From positions 1-52,903 of the forward strand of contig ONYQ01000001.1 in NCBI GenBank assembly GCA_900322145.1: a stretch of DNA of 52,903 nucleotides. The letters are read 5' to 3'. Every line of letters begins with the position of its first letter. Within the stretch, counting starts at the first letter, position 1. This document shows positions 8,734 through 52,646 of the stretch, one piece after another. The notes beneath the pieces were generated by a model that made no database searches, was not told the DNA's origin, and saw nothing but the letters and a program-made list of their open reading frames with translations. The position numbers were made by a program, and so were the translations under genes. Origin of the DNA: an uncultured Eubacteriales bacterium (lineage in GTDB: Bacteria; Bacillota; Clostridia; Oscillospirales; Acutalibacteraceae).

Positions 8734-8851
8734 CGGGCATTTTGACAAAAATCCGGTTGGCTGATAAAAAATGTATGGACTTTTTGAAATCTTTGTTGTA
8801 TAATGACAAATGTATGCAATAATCTTATACTTGAAGGGATTGACTGTTTTT

Positions 8852-9967
8852 ATGAAAAATATATTCAAATGTGCCGCAGCGGTTACAATGGCGGCAGCGT
8901 TGGCGTGTTCTGCCGGCTGTACCGGTGACACAAAATGGAGTTTCAAAACCGATCATTTGTCATTGACCAGCGGTATGTGGATCAGCTATACCTTTGATGG
9001 TGTGAATAATGCCCTGCAGAAGGTCAAGGAAACCGATGAAAATGCCACCCTTGAAACCATGGACTTCAATAAGCAGGAAATTGACGGTCAGCTGGCAAAA
9101 GACTGGGCTTATGCTGATGCGAAGAAACAGGTTATCCGTTATCTGACATTGGATAAGTTAGCGGCCGATCTGGGCGCTGAGGTATCGGAGGAAACCTTCA
9201 ATTCCAGCAAATACTATTATTCCTACTTCTACAAGAACTATTATTCCGAGATGTATGAAAAACTGGGTGTATCGGAGGACAGCTATTGCAAGGCTTACCT
9301 GATGCCGCAGCTGCTGTCGGATGAAGTCTTTAAAAAGCTCTATGACAAGGGCGGCACACAAGAGGTATCGGATAAAGAGGTAGAAACTTATTTTGTGGAT
9401 AACTATGTATCCTACTACTATGTAAGCTGTGACCTGACCACAACGGATGCCGACAGCGGAGAATCCAAGGAAGTGGATGCGGCTACGAAAGAAAAGTACA
9501 GCACCAATTTCAGAAAGTATGCTGCCATGCTGAATAATGACGGCAAGACAGCAAAGGATGTGGCCGAACAGTATAAGGTTGATTTCTCTGTGGAAACGGT
9601 TCCGGAAACCACCGAAACCAAGCACAAGGATGATATGTCGACAGATGACCTGAATAAGGCTATTCTGGAGGCTGAGGAAGGCAAGGCTGTGACAAAGGAG
9701 ATCGGCACCAAGCTGTATATGATCTATCGTTACAAGATTCAGGATAAAGCAGCGAAAATCAAGGCGGCTTCGGATGAAACTTCTGATGATGAAACGGAGA
9801 TTATTTCCCGTGAGGATATCGTGAAGAAGATGAAGTCGGATGACTTTGAAAAATATGTATCCGATGCAGAAGATAAATTGGATTATACCCGTAACGATGC
9901 CTGCGTTCATAAATATGACGTTCTGAGAACCGTCAATATCCTCGTTGACCTCTCCAAACAGCAATAA
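8852..9967 (+). CDS. Lipoprotein, possibly a SurA/PrsA N-domain-like chaperone without a PPIase domain
   Basis: Lipoprotein signal MKNIFKCAAAVTMAAALACSAGC (lipobox SAGC). Acidic Lys/Glu-rich helical sequence with VSDKEVETYFVDNY-type segments. The functional call is weak. Confidence 0.4.
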   Translation: MKNIFKCAAAVTMAAALACSAGCTGDTKWSFKTDHLSLTSGMWISYTFDGVNNALQKVKETDENATLETMDFNKQEIDGQLAKDWAYADAKKQVIRYLTLDKLAADLGAEVSEETFNSSKYYYSYFYKNYYSEMYEKLGVSEDSYCKAYLMPQLLSDEVFKKLYDKGGTQEVSDKEVETYFVDNYVSYYYVSCDLTTTDADSGESKEVDAATKEKYSTNFRKYAAMLNNDGKTAKDVAEQYKVDFSVETVPETTETKHKDDMSTDDLNKAILEAEEGKAVTKEIGTKLYMIYRYKIQDKAAKIKAASDETSDDETEIISREDIVKKMKSDDFEKYVSDAEDKLDYTRNDACVHKYDVLRTVNILVDLSKQQ

Positions 9968-15699: not shown

Positions 15700-15959
15700 A
15701 AATAAAAGCGATGATGGAAATAAGATACAGCCGTTTGTGCAAAGAGAACCGCCGGTTGGTGTAAGGCGGTGACAATAGCTGTATGGATAGCTCATTCCGG
15801 AGCTTTCTGTCCGAAGAGGATTAAGGCAGAACGGGTGGTTCCGTTACGAACCGGAGCCTTGTCAGAGGCTTACTGAGGGATACTGCTGTATCCGAAATTG
15901 GGTGGTACCACGAGCGAAATGCCCGTCCCATGTCATTTGATTGACGGGGCGGTTTTTTT
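15700..15959 (+). promoter_or_regulatory. T-box riboswitch leader, probable Leu specifier (CUC)
   Basis: AG bulge AGAGA (15743-15747), distal loop GGTTGGTGTAAG, F-box-like CCGTTA (15841-15846) and T-box sequence AAATTGGGTGGTACCACGAG (15895-15914). Terminator GCCCGTC...GACGGGGC plus T7 (15921-15959). Candidate specifier CTC followed by A at 15791-15794. Confidence 0.85.
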
Positions 15960-16001
15960 ATTGCTCAAAAATATTTTTATCCTACAACGGAGGTATTGAA
16001 C

Positions 16002-17690
16002 ATGGAACAAGGATTCAAGAAATATGTTCCCTTTCAGCAAATCAAGATGGAAAACAGAGAATGGCCCGACAAGACCATTACCAAAGCGCCGATATGGTGT
16101 TCGGTTGATCTGCGTGACGGCAATCAGGCATTGGTTGACCCGATGAACTTACAGCAGAAGCTGGAATTCTTCCATGCGCTGTGCGATATGGGATTCAAGG
16201 AAATTGAAATCGGTTTTCCGTCAGCATCCGAAACAGAATATGAAATCTGCCGTGAACTCATTGACGGACATCATATTCCTGATGACGTGACCATTCAGGT
16301 ATTGGTACAGGCGAGAGAACACCTCATCCGCAAAACCTTTGAAGCGGTCAAAGGCGCTAAAAATGTTATCGTCCATTTCTACAATTCCACTTCCACGCTT
16401 CAGCGTAAGGTCGTGTTCCATAAGGATATGGACGGTATTATTGATATTGCCGTTGAAGGCGCTAAACTCATCAAGGAACTGATTGACAGCTATGAAGGGG
16501 ATACGAATTTCCGTATTGAGTATTCCCCCGAAAGCTTTTCCGGTACAGAAGTGGATAATTCCGTTCGTATCTGTCAGGCTGTCATGGACGTATTCCAGCC
16601 GACTCCCGACAATCCGATTATTCTCAATCTGCCGAATACAGTGGAGATGTGTACGCCGAATACTTACGCCGACCAGATCGAATATTTCATCAAGCATCTT
16701 AAGAACCGTGAATCGGCGATCATCAGCCTGCATCCGCATAATGACAGAGGTACCGGTGTAGCCTGTGCCGAACTGGCACTCTTAGCCGGTGCTGACCGTA
16801 TTGAAGGCACTCTGTTCGGCAACGGTGAACGTACCGGCAACCTTGATATCGTTACCGTTGGTCTGAATATGTTTACACAGGGCGTTGATCCGCACCTCGA
16901 TTTCAGCAACCTGCCGAAGTACCGTGAAATCTATGAGCGCTGTACCAATATGAAGATCGGGGAACGTCAGCCGTATGTCGGTGATCTGGTGTTTACCGCT
17001 TTCTCCGGCTCTCATCAGGACGCTATCAATAAGGGCTTTGCCTATGTCAAGGAAACCGGCTCTGATAAGTGGGAGATTCCCTATCTGCCGATTGATCCTG
17101 CCGATGTCGGCCGTCAGTATGAGCCGATCATCCGTATCAATTCACAGTCCGGCAAGGGCGGTGCCGCCTTTATCATGCAGAATAACTTCGGTTATGAACT
17201 GCCCAAAGCGATGCACCCTGAATTCGGTGCGTTGGTAAAAGCGGAATGTGACAAGCTCGGCCGTGAATTGTCTCCGCAGGAATTGATGGATGTATTCCGC
17301 CGCAATTATCTGGAAATCGACCAGAAACTCTGGCTCGTGCGCCATATCATTACCAATGTTGACCACGAAAAAGCTACCTTCAAGGGTATTATCCATCTGG
17401 TAGAAATGGATAAGGATATAGAAATCTGCGGCGAAGGCAACGGCCCGATTGATGCGTTCTTCAAAGCGCTGAAAACCATTGGTGTCAAAGGCTTTGAGTT
17501 CGTCAACTACAGTGAACATTCCATTTCACAGGGTTCCGATTCCCGTGCTATCTGCTATATTGAATTAAAGGACCCCAATGGGGAACCTGTTTTTGGTGTC
17601 GGCATTTCTCACGGTATTTTCAAGGCCTCTGTGCGGGGCATTATCTGTGCGATTAACCGTTCCCATACACCGGTTCACTTTGAAATCTGA
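16002..17690 (+). CDS. leuA: 2-isopropylmalate synthase (long form, LeuA type 2)
   Basis: Motifs DLRDGNQ and HPHNDRGTG, plus a C-terminal LeuA dimerisation/regulatory domain. ATG at 16002 lies 8 nt after GGAGG; the ORF-track TTG at 15996 is less likely. Confidence 0.92.
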   Translation: MEQGFKKYVPFQQIKMENREWPDKTITKAPIWCSVDLRDGNQALVDPMNLQQKLEFFHALCDMGFKEIEIGFPSASETEYEICRELIDGHHIPDDVTIQVLVQAREHLIRKTFEAVKGAKNVIVHFYNSTSTLQRKVVFHKDMDGIIDIAVEGAKLIKELIDSYEGDTNFRIEYSPESFSGTEVDNSVRICQAVMDVFQPTPDNPIILNLPNTVEMCTPNTYADQIEYFIKHLKNRESAIISLHPHNDRGTGVACAELALLAGADRIEGTLFGNGERTGNLDIVTVGLNMFTQGVDPHLDFSNLPKYREIYERCTNMKIGERQPYVGDLVFTAFSGSHQDAINKGFAYVKETGSDKWEIPYLPIDPADVGRQYEPIIRINSQSGKGGAAFIMQNNFGYELPKAMHPEFGALVKAECDKLGRELSPQELMDVFRRNYLEIDQKLWLVRHIITNVDHEKATFKGIIHLVEMDKDIEICGEGNGPIDAFFKALKTIGVKGFEFVNYSEHSISQGSDSRAICYIELKDPNGEPVFGVGISHGIFKASVRGIICAINRSHTPVHFEI

Positions 17691-29861: not shown

Positions 29862-30878
29862 ATGAGCCAGAGTCTTACATTAAAGAAAAAAAGTTTTTCG
29901 CCTTCTCAATGGAAAACCATAGATCCGTCAGCTGCCCTCAAAGGAATGGAGTCCCTTTCCGTGTCAAAGGACAGCACACCTGAACCGGCAGCAGAAATTT
30001 CTGTCCCCAAGCCGGAATGGTATCATACCGTTTTTCATACCACCAGTTCTTCACTGAATATGATCTGGCACAAAAAGGGCGATAGAATGATACTGACAGT
30101 GCCGTGTGCTTCGTCCTGGGTGGATAATGAAAACGAAATTCAGCGTTTTTTACGGGAGCATACGCAAAAGTTGACCGGCGTGAGGGTTTCTTATGCCAAC
30201 AAGAAGATGGTTTTTGAGTGTAACTACTGGGAAGAAGATTTGCCGGAAACTATCGTCAAAGGGATAGAAGAATTGCTTGAACGGGCGAACCAGCATTTCG
30301 ATCTGCTGCCTACCTGTATGTGCTGTCAGCGTACCATTGCCGTTGAAGTAGAGGAATATCTGGATGAACTGCGTACAGTCTGCGGTATCTGTTATGACAG
30401 CCGCCGTTTGCAGCACGAACATGAACGTCTGATTGAACAGCATAAAATAGAAGCGGCTCGTGAATGGCGGGAAGAAATCAAAAACCGGCAGCCGATCAGA
30501 GATATTTTCAAAGTAGGTATCAAGGGCGGTCTCATCGGCTGCGGTATCGGCTTTGTGTTCTTTGTACTGAGTCTGTATTTGCCGATGTTCCGCTATATGC
30601 CGTTTTTTCCGGGCGCAGCGGCTGGCCTTTATATTGTGACCCGTTTGTGGAATATTGATTTCTATACAAAAGCAACACGTTTTCTGGTATCCACCTTTGC
30701 AGCTGTTCTGACGATGTTCCTTGTTTCCGGTTCGTGGGTATTTCTTTGTGTCCGTGTCCTTCATATCTATGAACCGACACGATTTATGCTGTTTAACAAT
30801 GGGGCTGTCTATAATTTAACACTAGGTATGTTCGGATATATGCTGGGTGCCTGGGTATCCTTTACGCATGGCGAATGA
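29862..30878 (+). CDS. Hypothetical membrane protein with a cytoplasmic Cys4 zinc-ribbon-like motif
   Basis: 338 aa. CMCC...CGIC pairs (TCMCCQRT...RTVCGICYD) are followed by about 4 TM helices. SD GGAGAG. Confidence 0.5.
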   Translation: MSQSLTLKKKSFSPSQWKTIDPSAALKGMESLSVSKDSTPEPAAEISVPKPEWYHTVFHTTSSSLNMIWHKKGDRMILTVPCASSWVDNENEIQRFLREHTQKLTGVRVSYANKKMVFECNYWEEDLPETIVKGIEELLERANQHFDLLPTCMCCQRTIAVEVEEYLDELRTVCGICYDSRRLQHEHERLIEQHKIEAAREWREEIKNRQPIRDIFKVGIKGGLIGCGIGFVFFVLSLYLPMFRYMPFFPGAAAGLYIVTRLWNIDFYTKATRFLVSTFAAVLTMFLVSGSWVFLCVRVLHIYEPTRFMLFNNGAVYNLTLGMFGYMLGAWVSFTHGE

Positions 30879-30932
30879 CCGAAGATTTTCACGAATTTAT
30901 CTGCTGAAAAGGTTTCCGTTTTCCTGACAGAC

Positions 30933-30973
30933 AAAACCCGCCGGTTTATGGAAGAACCGGCGGGCCTTTTTTA
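30933..30973. terminator. Bidirectional terminator between 29862-30878 (+) and DAHP synthase (-)
   Basis: AAACCCGCCGGTT / AACCGGCGGGCC stem followed by TTTTTTAT. Confidence 0.8.
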
Positions 30974-32002
30974 TGCCTGATGAATGGTTTTCATAGTTTG
31001 GTGCAGGGTGAGCACTTTGCGGGCTACGGTGTCGAACTGGTCGGGCGTGAGGGATTGTGCGCCGTCAGATAAGGCGTGTTTCGGGTCGTTGTGTACTTCA
31101 ATCATCAGACCGTCCGCACCGGCGGCTACGGCAGCCAGTGCCATCGTTTCGACTAAAGCGGCTTTGCCGGTGGCATGGCTGGGGTCAACGATAACGGGCA
31201 GATGGGATTTACTCTTGATGACCGGTACAGCGGAAAGGTCTAAGGTATTGCGGGTCGCCGTTTCAAAGGTACGGATGCCTCTTTCGCAGAGGATAACCTT
31301 ATTATTGCCGCCGGCCATGATATATTCGGCACTCATCAGCCATTCATCAATCGTGCTGGACAGTCCTCGTTTGAGCAGAATCGGCTTGTCGATTTTGCCC
31401 AGTTCCTTGAGCAGCTCAAAATTCTGCATATTGCGGGCACCTACCTGAATGATATCCACGCTTTCAAACATATCAATGTGGGAAACACGCATGATTTCAG
31501 TAACGATGGGTAAGCCTGTCAGCTTGCGGGCACCTTTCAGCAGGTCAAGACCTTCTGCTTTCAAGCCCTGAAACGCATAGGGGGAAGTTCTCGGTTTGAA
31601 AGCGCCGCCCCGCAGGAAAGTAGCACCGGCGGCCTTGACACGTTCGGCAACATAATTGATTTGTTCCTCGTTTTCTACCGAACAGGGGCCTGCCATGATA
31701 CACAGACTGCCGTCACCGATTTTCTGTCCTGTCGGCAGTTCGATGATCGTATTGTCGGGATGAAATTTGCGGTTAGCTTTTTTATACGGTTCTTGTACAC
31801 GGCGCAGATTTTCCACGACCTCCTGTGCATTGACCCAGTCCTCGTCAATGCTGGTGGTATCACCGATCAGTCCCAGTACGGTGGATTCAACCCCCTCCCA
31901 TGTATTGACCTTGACGTGGAAACGCTCCTCCAGTGTGGTTTTGAACAGGGAAAGCTGCTCCTTGGTAACACCTTGCTTGATAACGATAATCATACGGTTC
32001 AT
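30971..32002 (-). CDS. aroF: 3-deoxy-7-phosphoheptulonate (DAHP) synthase, type I-beta with an N-terminal ferredoxin/ACT-like regulatory domain
   Basis: Catalytic barrel motifs MAGPCSVE, KPRTSPY and VDPSH. About 70 aa of N-terminal regulatory domain. The start is ATG 32002 or ATG 31993 (better SD spacing). Confidence 0.88.
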   Translation of the reverse strand: MNRMIIVIKQGVTKEQLSLFKTTLEERFHVKVNTWEGVESTVLGLIGDTTSIDEDWVNAQEVVENLRRVQEPYKKANRKFHPDNTIIELPTGQKIGDGSLCIMAGPCSVENEEQINYVAERVKAAGATFLRGGAFKPRTSPYAFQGLKAEGLDLLKGARKLTGLPIVTEIMRVSHIDMFESVDIIQVGARNMQNFELLKELGKIDKPILLKRGLSSTIDEWLMSAEYIMAGGNNKVILCERGIRTFETATRNTLDLSAVPVIKSKSHLPVIVDPSHATGKAALVETMALAAVAAGADGLMIEVHNDPKHALSDGAQSLTPDQFDTVARKVLTLHQTMKTIHQA

Positions 32003-32025
32003 CCTTTCGATTGTTTTTCGGGAAT

Positions 32026-32056
32026 AAAAAAAACGGAACCCTCTGCGGATTCCGTT
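32026..32056 (-). terminator. Intrinsic terminator inside the aroF leader (candidate attenuator)
   Basis: Minus strand reads AACGGAAUCC-GCAGAG-GGGUUCCGUU followed by U8. It ends about 25 nt upstream of the aroF SD. Confidence 0.75.
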
Positions 32057-32102
32057 CCATTACCCTTTGTAAAATGGTGTCTGGCCATGCGATAGCTGTT
32101 AT

Positions 32103-32231
32103 TCAGACAGCTCCGGCGGTTATCCGGTCAGACGTTTGACGGAAATTCTCACAGCACAAATGATTTTCCCATACCCAAAAGCATGAAAAGCTGAAAAAGT
32201 ATGTAAAAAATCGTGTGCTGTACTTCGTCAT
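32103..32231 (-). CDS. Candidate aromatic-rich leader peptide (42 aa; 56 aa if the in-frame ATG at 32273 is used)
   Basis: Hand translation gives MTKYSTRFFTYFFSFSCFWVWENHLCCENFRQTSDRITAGAV*. Ten of residues 4-21 are Phe, Tyr or Trp. GAAAGGA lies 11 nt upstream. The ORF is below the 60-aa cutoff of the ORF track. Confidence 0.5.
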   Translation of the reverse strand: MTKYSTRFFTYFFSFSCFWVWENHLCCENFRQTSDRITAGAV

Positions 32232-32290
32232 TTCCGCTATCGTCCTTTCTGCATTGTCCGTTTCATTGGTCATTAACACCTGACGGACTT

Positions 32291-32319
32291 ATCATACACC
32301 TATCTTTTCCACTTGTCAA
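32291..32319 (-). promoter_or_regulatory. Sigma-A type promoter of the aroF leader
   Basis: Minus strand TTGACA (32319-32314), 17 nt, TATGAT (32296-32291). Confidence 0.65.
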
Positions 32320-32342
32320 TTGGTTATTTTTAGAGATATTTG

Positions 32343-33539
32343 TCACAGCGGAATATTTTTGTCGAAAATGATGCGGGTGCGCTGCGTCACGCCGCAGGGG
32401 AGAACTGTTGCTCCGGTCAGCGCATAGAGATCATCACAGCGGCACATCAGCGCATAGAAACGCTTGCCTTCATCCGTCAGACAAGCGGTATCGGCGTGAC
32501 GGGTTATCAGCGGCAGAGAAGCGGATTTTTTGGCTTCATGCAGAATATCCTGTCCCTGACGGCTGAAACCTAAGACCTGTATATACGGCGGTAATTCCTC
32601 GCAATCCGCTTGTGTCCATTGCAGGAAAGCATACAACAATAAACGGCGCAGCCGTGCAAGGGGGTAACGCTTGCTTTTGACGTAGGATAATATGCCGTCT
32701 ATGCTGATACAGGAACGTACTGCCTCATACAGACGGTTTTCCAGACCTTCACTGATATCCGGCAGGGCGGCGAAGTCCTGCGGTGTCATGGTACGCAGAC
32801 GATACAGCAGCATCGGCTCGATAACCTTATTTCTGTCACCGCTGAGATGCTGTCTGGCAGCATTAAACAAGGCTTTGACAGACGATGGAATATAGGCATC
32901 AATGGTTTGTTCCCGATATAACTGTTGCCGCAGATAAGAAGCCGAAGCAAATTGCCCATCCGGTGTATCGCTGTCATGTGCCACGGCTACACGCTGTATC
33001 GTGTGAAGTTGTATCGGACTATGCAAACGGTGAAGGGCTTTGGCATATTCCGTGCCGAGAATATCATTCGGATTGGTGAGGACAGCGGCGGTTTCTTCAC
33101 CGTATAACCGGCGCACCGCTTTTTCTCTGGCGGCGGCATAGGTGATGCCTTCCCTCAGATAGTGCCGCAGAGTATTTTCCACAGCAGTATCAGCAACGGC
33201 CTGTGCCGCCTGTTCAAGACGTGCGGTATCGCCGCATTCACTGCCGCAGTACAGCCTGTCCACACAGCCGAGTGCCTGTAACAGATACACACCCCCGAAA
33301 GCAAAGCGTTCCGCACCGGCGCAGGCGTATGTTGCCGGTAATTCTATCACTAAATCGGCACCCGATAACAGCGCCGCTTTGGTACGGGTATATTTATCGA
33401 AAACAGCCGGTTCCCCCCGCTGTGTAAAATGACCGCTCATGCAGGCGATGACCTTACAGCCGTCCTTGTGCATTTGTCGGAACAGATACGCATGACCATT
33501 ATGCAGGGGATTCAATTCACAAATAACTGCTCCGATCAT
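32343..33539 (-). CDS. tmcAL: tRNA(Met) cytidine acetate ligase (UPF0348/YlbM family nucleotidyltransferase)
   Basis: 398 aa. N-terminus MIGAVICELNPLHNGHAYL (HxGH-type motif) and family-typical length. Confidence 0.75.
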   Translation of the reverse strand: MIGAVICELNPLHNGHAYLFRQMHKDGCKVIACMSGHFTQRGEPAVFDKYTRTKAALLSGADLVIELPATYACAGAERFAFGGVYLLQALGCVDRLYCGSECGDTARLEQAAQAVADTAVENTLRHYLREGITYAAAREKAVRRLYGEETAAVLTNPNDILGTEYAKALHRLHSPIQLHTIQRVAVAHDSDTPDGQFASASYLRQQLYREQTIDAYIPSSVKALFNAARQHLSGDRNKVIEPMLLYRLRTMTPQDFAALPDISEGLENRLYEAVRSCISIDGILSYVKSKRYPLARLRRLLLYAFLQWTQADCEELPPYIQVLGFSRQGQDILHEAKKSASLPLITRHADTACLTDEGKRFYALMCRCDDLYALTGATVLPCGVTQRTRIIFDKNIPL

Positions 33540-33611
33540 GCTGTTCTCACTCCTTTCTGTTTATGATGACACATCCTTATAAAAAAACTGTCGGTTGTGC
33601 AAAAAAATAGA

Positions 33612-33640
33612 TTGAAATCGTTTTGCTTTTGTATTATATT
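33612..33640 (+). promoter_or_regulatory. Sigma-A type promoter for ackA
   Basis: TTGAAA (33612-33617), 17 nt, TATATT (33635-33640). Confidence 0.5.
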
Positions 33641-33690
33641 ATAAATATATCCGTTTGATTTTGCAATAAAAAGCAGGAGGTTTTGTAAAA

Positions 33691-34890
33691 ATGAAAATTC
33701 TCGTCATCAATGCAGGCAGCTCTTCCATGAAGTATCAGCTCATCGACATGACAGACGAAAGCGTTCTGGCAAAGGGTAACTGCGAAAGAATCGGTATTGA
33801 CGGTCACTTCAAACACAGCACCGGCGATGGCCGTGTGTTTGAAACAGATGTTACCATGAACAACCACACCGAAGCATTTGTACAGATCAAAAATGCTCTT
33901 ATCAGTGAGGAATACGGCGTAATCAAGTCCCTTGATGAAGTATCGGCTGTCGGACATCGTATCGTGCAGGGCGGTTCCCTGTTCAGTGAATCCGTTATTG
34001 TTACCGAAGACGTTATCAAGGGTATTGAGAGCCTGATTCCGCTGGCACCGCTGCACAATGCCGCTCATGTACAGGGCATTCGTGCTTGTCTGGAAGTATT
34101 CGGTGACAAGGTACCGGAGGTTGTTGTATTTGATACGGCTTTCCATTCCACTATGCCCGAAAAGGCCTTTATCTATCCCGTACCCTATGAGTATTATGAA
34201 AAATATGCTGTTCGCCGCTATGGCTTCCACGGTACTTCTCACCGCTATGTTTCCGGCCGCTGTGCGGAACTCATGGGCAAGGATATCAAGGATATCAAGA
34301 TCATTACCTGTCACCTCGGCAACGGTTCTTCCATTACCGCTGTCAACGGCGGCAAGGTCGTTGATACCAGTATGGGTCTGACACCGCTCGATGGTATTAT
34401 GATGGGTACCCGTACCGGTTCTCTTGACCCATCTGTTGTTACCTTTATTGCGGAAAAAGAGCATATCAGCGCAGAGGATATGGACATCCTGCTCAACAAG
34501 AAATCCGGTTTCCTCGGTATTTCGGGTGTTTCTTCCGATGACCGTGATGTTACCGCAGCCGCAGAAGCCGGCAACAAGAGAGCGCAGTTGGCGATTGATA
34601 TTCTTGAATATGACATTCTGAAGTACATCGGCAGCTATACCGCTGTACTGGGCGGCGTGGATGCTATCGTCTTTACAGCCGGTATCGGTGAGAACCAAAG
34701 CTCCCACCGCAGTAAGGTCTGCCATGCTCTTGAATACATGGGCGTGAAGATCGACGATACTCTCAATGAGCAGATGATCCGTGGCAAAGAAGGCAAGATT
34801 TCTACCGATGATTCTACAGTAGCGGTCTATGTCATTCCCACCAACGAGGAACTGGTTATTGCCCGTGATACCATGGCACTCGTAAAATAA
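33691..34890 (+). CDS. ackA: Acetate kinase
   Basis: 399 aa. MKILVINAGSSSMKYQL and the GFHGTSH motif. SD AGGAGG. Confidence 0.93.
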   Translation: MKILVINAGSSSMKYQLIDMTDESVLAKGNCERIGIDGHFKHSTGDGRVFETDVTMNNHTEAFVQIKNALISEEYGVIKSLDEVSAVGHRIVQGGSLFSESVIVTEDVIKGIESLIPLAPLHNAAHVQGIRACLEVFGDKVPEVVVFDTAFHSTMPEKAFIYPVPYEYYEKYAVRRYGFHGTSHRYVSGRCAELMGKDIKDIKIITCHLGNGSSITAVNGGKVVDTSMGLTPLDGIMMGTRTGSLDPSVVTFIAEKEHISAEDMDILLNKKSGFLGISGVSSDDRDVTAAAEAGNKRAQLAIDILEYDILKYIGSYTAVLGGVDAIVFTAGIGENQSSHRSKVCHALEYMGVKIDDTLNEQMIRGKEGKISTDDSTVAVYVIPTNEELVIARDTMALVK

Positions 34891-52354: not shown

Positions 52355-52646
52355 AATGAAGTGACTGCACAGATATGCGATGAAGCGGGAGGTTGCGGCT
52401 GAAACAGGCCGGTTTTTCCGTGGAGTATGTCCGATTTTAAACCGGGCGAAAGAATATTTTTTGATGGAGCAAACAGACCTGAACCTAAGAGTTGCAAGGC
52501 CGGGGTTGTTATGCGCCAATTTTCTCAAAGCCTTACCCGGGGATGCGTTGTCATCACCGGATTTTTAAAAGAGTTGCGAGAAACACCCGGAAGGGTGTAG
52601 AGGAATTGAGAGAACGCCCGCCAACTACAATAAGGAGGCGATGAAC

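Follow-up and report, generated by a model that had tools for sequence, protein, structure and literature searches.

A probable ribosome-mediated attenuator with an aromatic leader peptide upstream of DAHP synthase genes in Clostridia

DAHP synthase (DAHPS) commits carbon to Phe, Tyr, and Trp, and the control of aromatic genes usually cited for Bacillota consists of T-box, TRAP, or repressor systems. The DNA analyzed here, referred to as the window, comprises 52,903 nucleotides of an uncultured Eubacteriales bacterium from Acutalibacteraceae (contig ONYQ01000001.1, assembly GCA_900322145.1). Its DAHPS gene is preceded, on the minus strand, by a leader containing a promoter, a short upstream open reading frame (uORF) with a run of aromatic codons, and an intrinsic terminator. 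This leader is very probably a ribosome-mediated transcription attenuator, adjusting DAHPS expression to how far tRNA-Phe and tRNA-Tyr are charged, with tRNA-Trp as an additional input in the window. An attenuator was proposed in a preliminary description of the same DNA, and it is supported by the comparison of orthologous loci and by the complementarity of the competing helices. The interpretation starts from the anatomy of the sequence, its conservation, and the locus-specific complementarity of helices that compete with each other, all of which are observed directly.

The leader occupies most of the 349-nt gap on the minus strand between the stop codon of a HIGH_NTase1/TmcAL-family gene and the start of the DAHPS gene (feature coordinates are collected in Table 1). 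Its promoter, with a 17-nt spacer between TTGACA and TATGAT (32319-32291), matches the consensus at 11 of 12 positions and is the top site in 30500-33800; the sequence TTGACAA is kept at the same relative position in relatives. Judging from the position of the hexamers, transcription is predicted to start near 32284, 5' of the uORF. Both the promoter and the uORF from ATG 32231 to TGA 32105-32103 had been noticed in the preliminary description and were found as it stated them, including ten aromatic residues (6 Phe, 2 Tyr, and 2 Trp) at positions 4-21 of the peptide; these codons are the proposed sensing codons of the leader. The alternative in-frame start offered there, ATG 32273, was not retained: it is without a Shine–Dalgarno (SD) sequence and lies some 10 nt downstream of where transcription is predicted to begin. 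Moreover, the Arg-Phe motif at codons 7-9 in orthologous leaders matches the numbering from ATG 32231. The best stretch of 15 codons in the window leader contains 9 aromatic residues (shuffle mean 4.3), and at least 9 are found in only 3 of about 62,000 stop-free 15-codon stretches in the six frames of the whole 52.9-kb window. The leader run is the sole 9-aromatic site outside a long open reading frame (ORF). The other 9-aromatic run, YYYSYFYKNYYSEMY at 9212-9256 (+), was rejected as a leader, being located within a 385-aa protein-coding ORF (8810-9967).

The conservation of this arrangement was analyzed at 160 loci of DAHPS orthologs (59-85% identity), 80 from GTDB species genomes and 80 from metagenomes, of which 150 were testable; for each locus, the best stop-free 15-codon stretch was taken from the 300 nt upstream of the gene. 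At least 7 Phe, Tyr, or Trp residues in 15 codons were present at 82/150 loci on the forward strand, compared to 10/150 on the reverse strand and 6.8% of dinucleotide shuffles. With at least 8 such residues, the respective values were 58/150, 2/150, and 2%. The persistence of the ORF and its aromatic codons in relatives had been named in advance as a point on which the attenuator interpretation could fail, and the result (82/150 vs 10/150 on the reverse strand) clearly favors it. An intrinsic terminator is located before the gene for 69 of the 83 aromatic-rich uORFs, usually 20-48 nt from the uORF stop codon, and most of these 69 uORFs, with a median length of 33 aa, possess ATG and SD. In total, 66 distinct uORFs of this aromatic-rich type precede DAHPS genes, that of the window among them. 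Of these 66 leaders, 53 have a sigma-70-like promoter no more than 130 nt before the uORF, and 6 have one between the uORF and the gene. The carriers include Ruminococcus, Acutalibacteraceae, Oscillospiraceae, Lachnospiraceae, Christensenellaceae, Anaerovoracaceae, Acetobacterium, and Clostridium thailandense.

A BLASTN search with the window leader revealed similarity in the closest relatives only, chiefly at the terminator. Across the leaders the nucleotide sequence diverges, while the reading frame, SD/ATG, and aromatic content are kept, a pattern characteristic of a sensing ORF that is translated and not of a ligand-binding RNA. The residues of the 66 leaders consist of Phe in 15.7%, Tyr in 12.8%, and Trp in 1.1%. 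Tyr is present in all 66 leaders, Phe in 65, and Trp in 21; the leader of the window and those of its closest relatives contain all three amino acids.

The 291-nt leader is strongly structured, with a folding z of -4.49 vs dinucleotide shuffles. The long hairpin around the aromatic run, which the preliminary description had drawn with two helices, was recovered (9 bp and 8 bp) and extended by three further helices on folding. It pairs region 1 with region 2, it is proposed to act as an anti-antiterminator, and the aromatic codons occupy its apical half (32245-32130 for the whole hairpin). The terminator stem with eight U residues ending at 32026 was likewise recovered; the distance from this end to the SD of DAHPS is 18 nt and not about 25 nt as initially estimated, and the distance to ATG 31993 is 32-33 nt. 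The terminator sequence is the same at loci L001 and L003. The third structure, the antiterminator, is formed by regions 2 and 3 (32154-32139:32055-32043) and consists of 13 bp with two small bulges (-14.8 kcal/mol); it is mutually exclusive with the terminator. The weak pairing of UUCCGU (32144-32139) with ACGGAA (32055-32050), previously found by eye, turned out to be the core of this duplex, which has equivalents of differing sequences in the closest relatives (L003 -18.3, L001 -13.4, and L004 -14.4 kcal/mol). Two small spacer hairpins containing the uORF stop codon are located in the antiterminator multiloop. Among six strain-level copies of the leader, the sole change within the uORF is U32151C, a synonymous substitution (Cys27, UGU to UGC). 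In the proposed antiterminator, a G-U pair thereby becomes G-C, with the duplex energy changing from -14.8 to -16.7 kcal/mol, and the long hairpin loses an A-U pair. The substitution (minus strand) was seen in L161, L163, L165, and L166.

The competition between these structures was analyzed in two ways. In an alignment-free covariation test, duplex energies were compared for strands from the same locus (cognate) and from different loci (non-cognate) in 57 non-redundant leaders. The pairing of region 1 with region 2 was stronger for cognate strands (-13.2 vs -10.2, p = 2e-4), as was the pairing of region 2 with the 5' arm and loop of the terminator (-14.5 vs -10.4, p = 2e-4). The arms of the terminator, used as a positive control, gave -19.1 vs -6.5 (p = 2e-4), and region 1 with the terminator 5' arm, the negative control, gave no difference in the 57 leaders (-6.8 vs -6.6, p = 0.22), which argues against an artefact of composition. 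For the window, the duplex of its own regions 1 and 2 (-23.3 kcal/mol) is the best among the 57 partners. In the occupancy test, the transcript was cut before the 3' arm of the terminator and the RNA located 5' of the ribosome was excluded from pairing. The occupancy of the terminator 5' arm in the window was 0.82 with the ribosome stalled on aromatic codons, 0.40 without a ribosome, and 0.38 with the ribosome at the stop codon. The means for 63 leaders were 0.73, 0.60 for free RNA, and 0.44, respectively (Wilcoxon, stalled vs free 9e-7; stalled vs at-stop 6e-11). With the ribosome on the early aromatic codons, CUGUGAGAAUUUCCGU (32154-32139) pairs with ACGGAAUCCGCAG (32055-32043) in the window fold.

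On this basis, the following mechanism can be proposed. Transcription would start near 32284 from the TTGACA/TATGAT promoter, and a ribosome would load at ATG 32231 and translate the 42-codon ORF. When aromatic aminoacyl-tRNAs are plentiful, the ribosome would reach TGA 32105; behind it, or when no ribosome is present, the long hairpin 32245-32130 would sequester region 2 (32154-32139), the terminator 32058-32030 with its eight U residues would form, and transcription would end at about 32026. A shortage of Phe-, Tyr-, or Trp-tRNA would leave the ribosome waiting on one of the ten aromatic codons (32222-32169), and the most effective stall is expected at CGA-UUU-UUU (32213-32205). Such a ribosome would cover or separate the 5' half of the long hairpin, so that the free region 2 could pair with 32055-32043 once the latter is transcribed; the terminator would then be blocked and RNA polymerase would enter the gene. 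It is also proposed that the ferredoxin-like domain of DAHPS would add allosteric, post-translational feedback as a second layer of control for the same amino acids. What the model infers beyond the sequence is that the uORF is translated, that ribosomes stall on it, that the folds compete kinetically, and that the cell responds physiologically.

There are data that speak against this interpretation or constrain it, and they concern the energetics, the geometry, and the distribution of the leader. The equilibrium stability of the terminator fold exceeds that of the antiterminator fold by 5-9 kcal/mol. The equilibrium fold of the full leader with a ribosome mask was uninformative, giving the terminator a p of about 0.9 at every ribosome position; since the terminator wins at every position once its 3' arm exists, the switch must be kinetic. 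The difference in occupancy between stalled and free leaders depends on excluding base pairs across the ribosome. When these are permitted, the antiterminator is favored only by stalls at codons 1-9 and 21-25, and the long hairpin can re-form around a ribosome at codons 12-20, which was judged sterically unrealistic. The comparison of the segment after the aromatic run, paired with the terminator 5' arm, to shuffles was weakly positive (mean z -0.68, 21% below -1.64); the window value was z -0.77, with an arm definition that was too narrow. The leader stop codon is located 34 nt 3' of region 2, and a terminating ribosome leaves region 2 uncovered, unlike in E. coli trpL. GGA and ATG of the window uORF are 11 nt apart, a rather long spacing compared to the 6-10 nt of orthologous uORFs. 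The leader is also absent in some close orthologs, such as L002 (85% protein identity), L005, and L006, and must therefore be dispensable. At L002, a TTGACA/TATTAT promoter is located directly before the DAHPS gene, and at L085-L088 the best upstream frame resembles an ordinary coding sequence reaching the DAHPS start. The absence of the leader from L002, L005, L006, and L085-L088 indicates that the attenuator was lost, or never gained, repeatedly.

A part of the family is more closely related. Like the window leader, at least 20 leaders contain CGAUUU at codons 7-9 and, further downstream, a UUUUUGYGCUGC block (Phe-Cys-Cys). CGATTT is invariant in an 18-sequence MAFFT alignment of leaders whose GC content varies from 30 to 63%. 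The hexamer occurs in different genera and is carried by L001, L003, L004, L008, L010, L011, L013, L014, L016, and L022, and further by L023, L025, L052, L082, L083, L095, L097, L110, and L113. Its invariance is not explained by pairing alone, because helix partners elsewhere co-vary. The codon CGA accounts for 17% of Arg codons in the leaders vs 3.8% in their respective DAHPS genes, and UUU for 82% of Phe codons vs 50%; this choice of UUU and the rare CGA fits slow decoding. CGA-UUU would then be a slow-decoding pair placed so that a ribosome awaiting Phe-tRNA covers region 1. The strand of region 2 consists of the conserved Cys codons (UGYUGC) and that of region 1 of GCACG beside CGA, so these peptide motifs are in fact RNA constraints.

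Between the two conserved blocks of this subfamily there is an apical hairpin with a loop made of Tyr and Phe codons. In a sequence-only alignment, 83% of its cells are paired, compared to 28-56% in slid controls, and 18 cells carry double changes vs 8.0 +/- 3.2 in shuffles (1/500). A 30-sequence alignment contains compensatory changes in all five pairs. The row of the window is poorly aligned in the five apical columns and only two of its five cells form standard pairs; the covariation of the apical hairpin therefore supports the family and not the window helix 32203-32197:32176-32170. RNAalifold, applied to the MAFFT or covariance-model alignments, recovers the apical hairpin only. The arms of P1 are located at variable offsets from CGAUUU, and for this reason no column-wise covariation is claimed for P1 or the antiterminator. 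A covariance model, R1, was built from 18 subfamily sequences and searched against about 700 kb; it gave 50 matches, all on the coding strand just upstream of DAHPS, and its sole match in the window is 32129-32237 (minus strand). In most subfamily members (L010 2237-2332, L014 2241-2340, L023 2276-2374, and others), the covarying hairpin inside the ORF, with its UAUUUUAU-like loop, is followed immediately by a run of 5-7 U residues. It was flagged in the terminator scan and resembles a pause site or weak terminator; the equivalent in the window, 32203-32170 (-), is weaker and without the U-run.

The RNA-level constraints raise the question of whether the ORF is incidental and the terminator is controlled by a non-coding sensor, i.e., a riboswitch, a divergent T-box, or a binding site for an RNA-binding protein. 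The strong structure of the leader, the nucleotide-level invariance of CGAUUU in 18 subfamily members, and a covarying hairpin inside the ORF, all of them constraints beyond coding, could be understood in this way. However, it is the frame, SD/ATG, and aromatic content that are conserved across families and not the nucleotide sequence, the enrichment is confined to one strand and one frame, and Phe/Tyr codons make up the loop and flanks of the conserved hairpin itself. In addition, there was no Rfam match at E up to 10, although the same library scores a T-box elsewhere in the window. A non-coding sensor is consequently regarded as very improbable.

The translated ORF could also have a role other than sensing of tRNA charging by a stalled ribosome. 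It may be considered that promoter, SD, ORF, and terminator constitute a complete unit, an independent gene of an aromatic or hydrophobic micropeptide, and that DAHPS has a separate promoter; bacteria do produce small peptides of aromatic and hydrophobic character. Such a gene, however, would leave only 32 nt between the U-tract and ATG 31993, which is little room for a promoter and a 5' untranslated region, and the promoter-like sites described above are in the wrong place for it (6/66 between uORF and gene vs 53/66 upstream of the uORF). The peptide is unconserved beyond its aromatic content and matches no Pfam/NCBIfam family. The unit is linked to DAHPS, with upstream flanks that lack similarity across loci, and L002, L005, and L006 are without it. 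Taken together, these data make the micropeptide gene very improbable as well. A third proposal, likewise very improbable, is that the uORF encodes an arrest peptide similar to TnaC, which senses free aromatic amino acids or another signal in the exit tunnel instead of tRNA charging. The conserved Arg-Phe at codons 7-9 and the recurrent C-terminal Phe-Cys-Cys might be read as arrest motifs, and arrest peptides such as CliM are known in Clostridia. The motifs are nevertheless explained by RNA pairing (GCACG:CGUGC, and UGYUGC Cys codons as region 2), peptide sequences otherwise vary freely, and it would make no regulatory sense to induce the first step of a biosynthetic pathway when its end product is in excess.

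The attenuator interpretation can be compared with described systems. In trpL, pheL, and hisL, codons for the end product are clustered in the leader ORF, helices 1:2, 2:3, and 3:4 compete, and a stall frees region 2 (PMC11802643). The clostridial leader is similar to these E. coli leaders in having a short ORF with codons for the pathway end products and three competing helices, of which 3:4 is an intrinsic terminator. It differs in the lack of sequence or Rfam-model similarity, in sensing two or three amino acids at once, in having its sensing codons between regions 1 and 2, where they occupy the apical half of a single long hairpin, and, in the window, in basal helices which sequester the SD and AUG of the uORF. 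In contrast to E. coli trpL, region 2 is followed only at some distance by the uORF stop codon. The Corynebacterium leader before aroF mentioned in the preliminary description is real: it is aroR of C. glutamicum, which encodes a leader peptide with Phe-Tyr-Phe (Neshat et al., 2014, reviewed in PMC11802643). Stalling in aroR-aroF under Phe limitation raises read-through and Tyr supply is without effect (PMC11802643). Both aroR and the clostridial leaders thus place a peptide with aromatic codons before a DAHP synthase gene. When compared by description, aroR comes from an actinobacterium and has a three-residue motif, whereas the clostridial leaders contain 7-12 aromatic codons, always including Tyr.

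A precedent in the wider Bacillota is uORFC-13-1 (Brewer et al., 2021, PMC8632094), represented by 24 sequences from Acholeplasma and unassigned environmental DNA and found exclusively upstream of aroF. It contains -35/-10 elements, a ribosome-binding site with start codon, a U-run that specifies Phe (one residue or more), an adjacent terminator, and one extra paired element, and it was predicted to act via the speed of Phe incorporation (PMC8632094). The window leader has every described feature of uORFC-13-1, the two having been compared by description only; the present family, unlike the Acholeplasma and environmental sequences, spans at least eight clostridial groups. The earlier remark that leader-peptide control would be unusual here does not hold: it is the majority arrangement among the sampled orthologs and so is not unusual for DAHPS in this clade, and uORFC-13-1 shows that it is not unprecedented in the wider Bacillota (PMC8632094). 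In full-text literature searches no description of a clostridial aroF leader was found; a prior description in the attenuator survey of Lopatovskaya et al. (2010) is possible.

Database searches gave no known family for the leader. Rfam 15 (4227 models; 31900-32450, E up to 10) returned nothing relevant, with chance miRNA/snoRNA matches only, and no Rfam match was found in 20 related loci; Pfam and NCBIfam, also with E up to 10, contain no family for the peptides of the window and six relatives. A T-box reading of the leader (RF00230) was rejected, as there was no match at this locus when the same scan detected the T-box of leuA. The latter, at 15702-15933 (+), scores 118.9 bits, has its own terminator, and is located before leuA (15996-17690, +), encoding 2-isopropylmalate synthase with HMGL-like, IPMS_D2, and LeuA_dimer domains. 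Two amino acid pathways of one genome are therefore controlled differently, one by a T-box and the other by the proposed leader peptide. T-box leaders resemble the proposed attenuator in sensing tRNA charging and in controlling an intrinsic terminator in the 5' leader; they differ from it in binding uncharged tRNA directly, with no need for translation.

It is well supported, from the sequence comparison, that the element is a new, widespread, and unannotated case of the established attenuator principle known from trpL/pheL. The data likewise support the view that many rumen and gut Clostridia would set DAHPS transcription by leader-peptide attenuation and not by a T-box, TRAP, or a repressor. 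The uORFs are unannotated and none of Rfam, Pfam, and NCBIfam has a model for them, so that this control point is missed in regulon reconstructions and in metabolic models. A more far-reaching proposal, tentative and rather unlikely, is that attenuators of this type make up a previously undescribed class found throughout Clostridia, which senses both Phe and Tyr and has design features that textbook attenuators lack. Three such features can be considered. CGA, read by I:A wobble in the P site, together with wobble-read UUU in the A site may sensitize the stall at the first Phe codon and hide region 1. The covarying hairpin in the coding region, followed in most relatives by a U-run, could pause or terminate RNA polymerase until the ribosome arrives. 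The basal helices closing the uORF SD and AUG may limit sensing to a single round of co-transcriptional translation. The leader would represent a new principle only if CGA-UUU, the internal covarying hairpin with its U-run, and the self-sequestration of the uORF start prove functional. The 66 distinct leaders and the covariance model constitute a comparative set for studying the integration of two or three amino acids by a single leader, and the family could be used for designing Phe/Tyr-responsive switches in anaerobes.

Table 1. Features of the DAHPS leader and its flanking genes in the window (coordinates of the whole stretch).
Feature	Position	Strand	Basis or remarks
HIGH_NTase1/TmcAL-family gene	32343-33539	-	domain match; upstream neighbor of the leader
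-35 hexamer TTGACA, leader promoter	32314-32319	-	consensus scan
-10 hexamer TATGAT	32291-32296	-	consensus scan
SD AAAGGA of the leader ORF	32243-32248	-	sequence; GGA pairs within basal helix 32245-32241:32134-32130
Leader ORF, 42 codons + TGA, encodes MTKYSTRFFTYFFSFSCFWVWENHLCCENFRQTSDRITAGAV	32103-32231	-	ATG 32231, TGA 32105-32103
Aromatic codon run, codons 4-21 (Y4 F8 F9 Y11 F12 F13 F15 F18 W19 W21)	32169-32222	-	
CGA-UUU hexamer (Arg7-Phe8), directly 3' of the P1 5' arm	32208-32213	-	invariant in 18 aligned subfamily leaders
Long hairpin, proposed anti-antiterminator (regions 1:2)	32130-32245	-	single-sequence fold
Long-hairpin basal helix	32245-32241:32134-32130	-	fold
Long-hairpin basal helix	32237-32230:32146-32139	-	fold
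Long-hairpin helix, 9 bp	32222-32214:32158-32150	-	fold
Long-hairpin helix, 8 bp	32212-32205:32169-32162	-	fold
Long-hairpin apical helix	32203-32197:32176-32170	-	single-sequence fold
Long-hairpin helix	32192-32190:32182-32180	-	fold
Region 2, antiterminator 5' strand, CUGUGAGAAUUUCCGU	32139-32154	-	pairs with region 1 in the long hairpin
Two spacer hairpins, 32127-32124:32116-32113 and 32112-32107:32099-32094	32094-32127	-	fold
Region 3, antiterminator 3' strand, ACGGAAUCCGCAG	32043-32055	-	terminator 5' arm and part of the loop
Intrinsic terminator, 12-bp stem 32058-32047:32041-32030, 5-nt loop, U8 32033-32026	32026-32058	-	about -15.7 kcal/mol
DAHP synthase gene, 340 aa	30971-32007	-	SD AAAGGA 32007-32002, ATG 31993; domain and orthologue matches

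The upstream gene, called tmcAL in the preliminary description, does encode a HIGH_NTase1/TmcAL-family protein. Of the two starts suggested for DAHPS, ATG 31993 was retained and 32002 was discarded, because the orthologs begin with MIIV and the public gene calls give 340 aa. The ACT-like regulatory domain expected at the N-terminus was borne out as a ferredoxin-like regulatory domain (PF18152, residues 1-68), and a DAHP_synth_1 domain is also present. The DAHPS of Thermotoga maritima aligns with the window protein over its full length, and in the Thermotoga enzyme the ferredoxin-like domain is a Tyr/Phe allosteric module. An identical DAHPS protein is present in rumen assemblies, e.g., GCA_902771905.1, and in the public assemblies carrying it, such as this one, no gene is called over the leader.

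On the other side of the DAHPS gene, a 338-aa ORF (29862-30878, +) is convergent with it; its C-terminal half resembles a multi-pass membrane segment, and no Pfam match was found for this ORF. A GC-rich hairpin located between the convergent genes (30937-30964) could be a bidirectional terminator. Elsewhere in the window, and in line with its clostridial origin, 52372-52449 (+) matches the S10-Clostridia ribosomal protein leader with 49.8 bits (gathering score 35.1).

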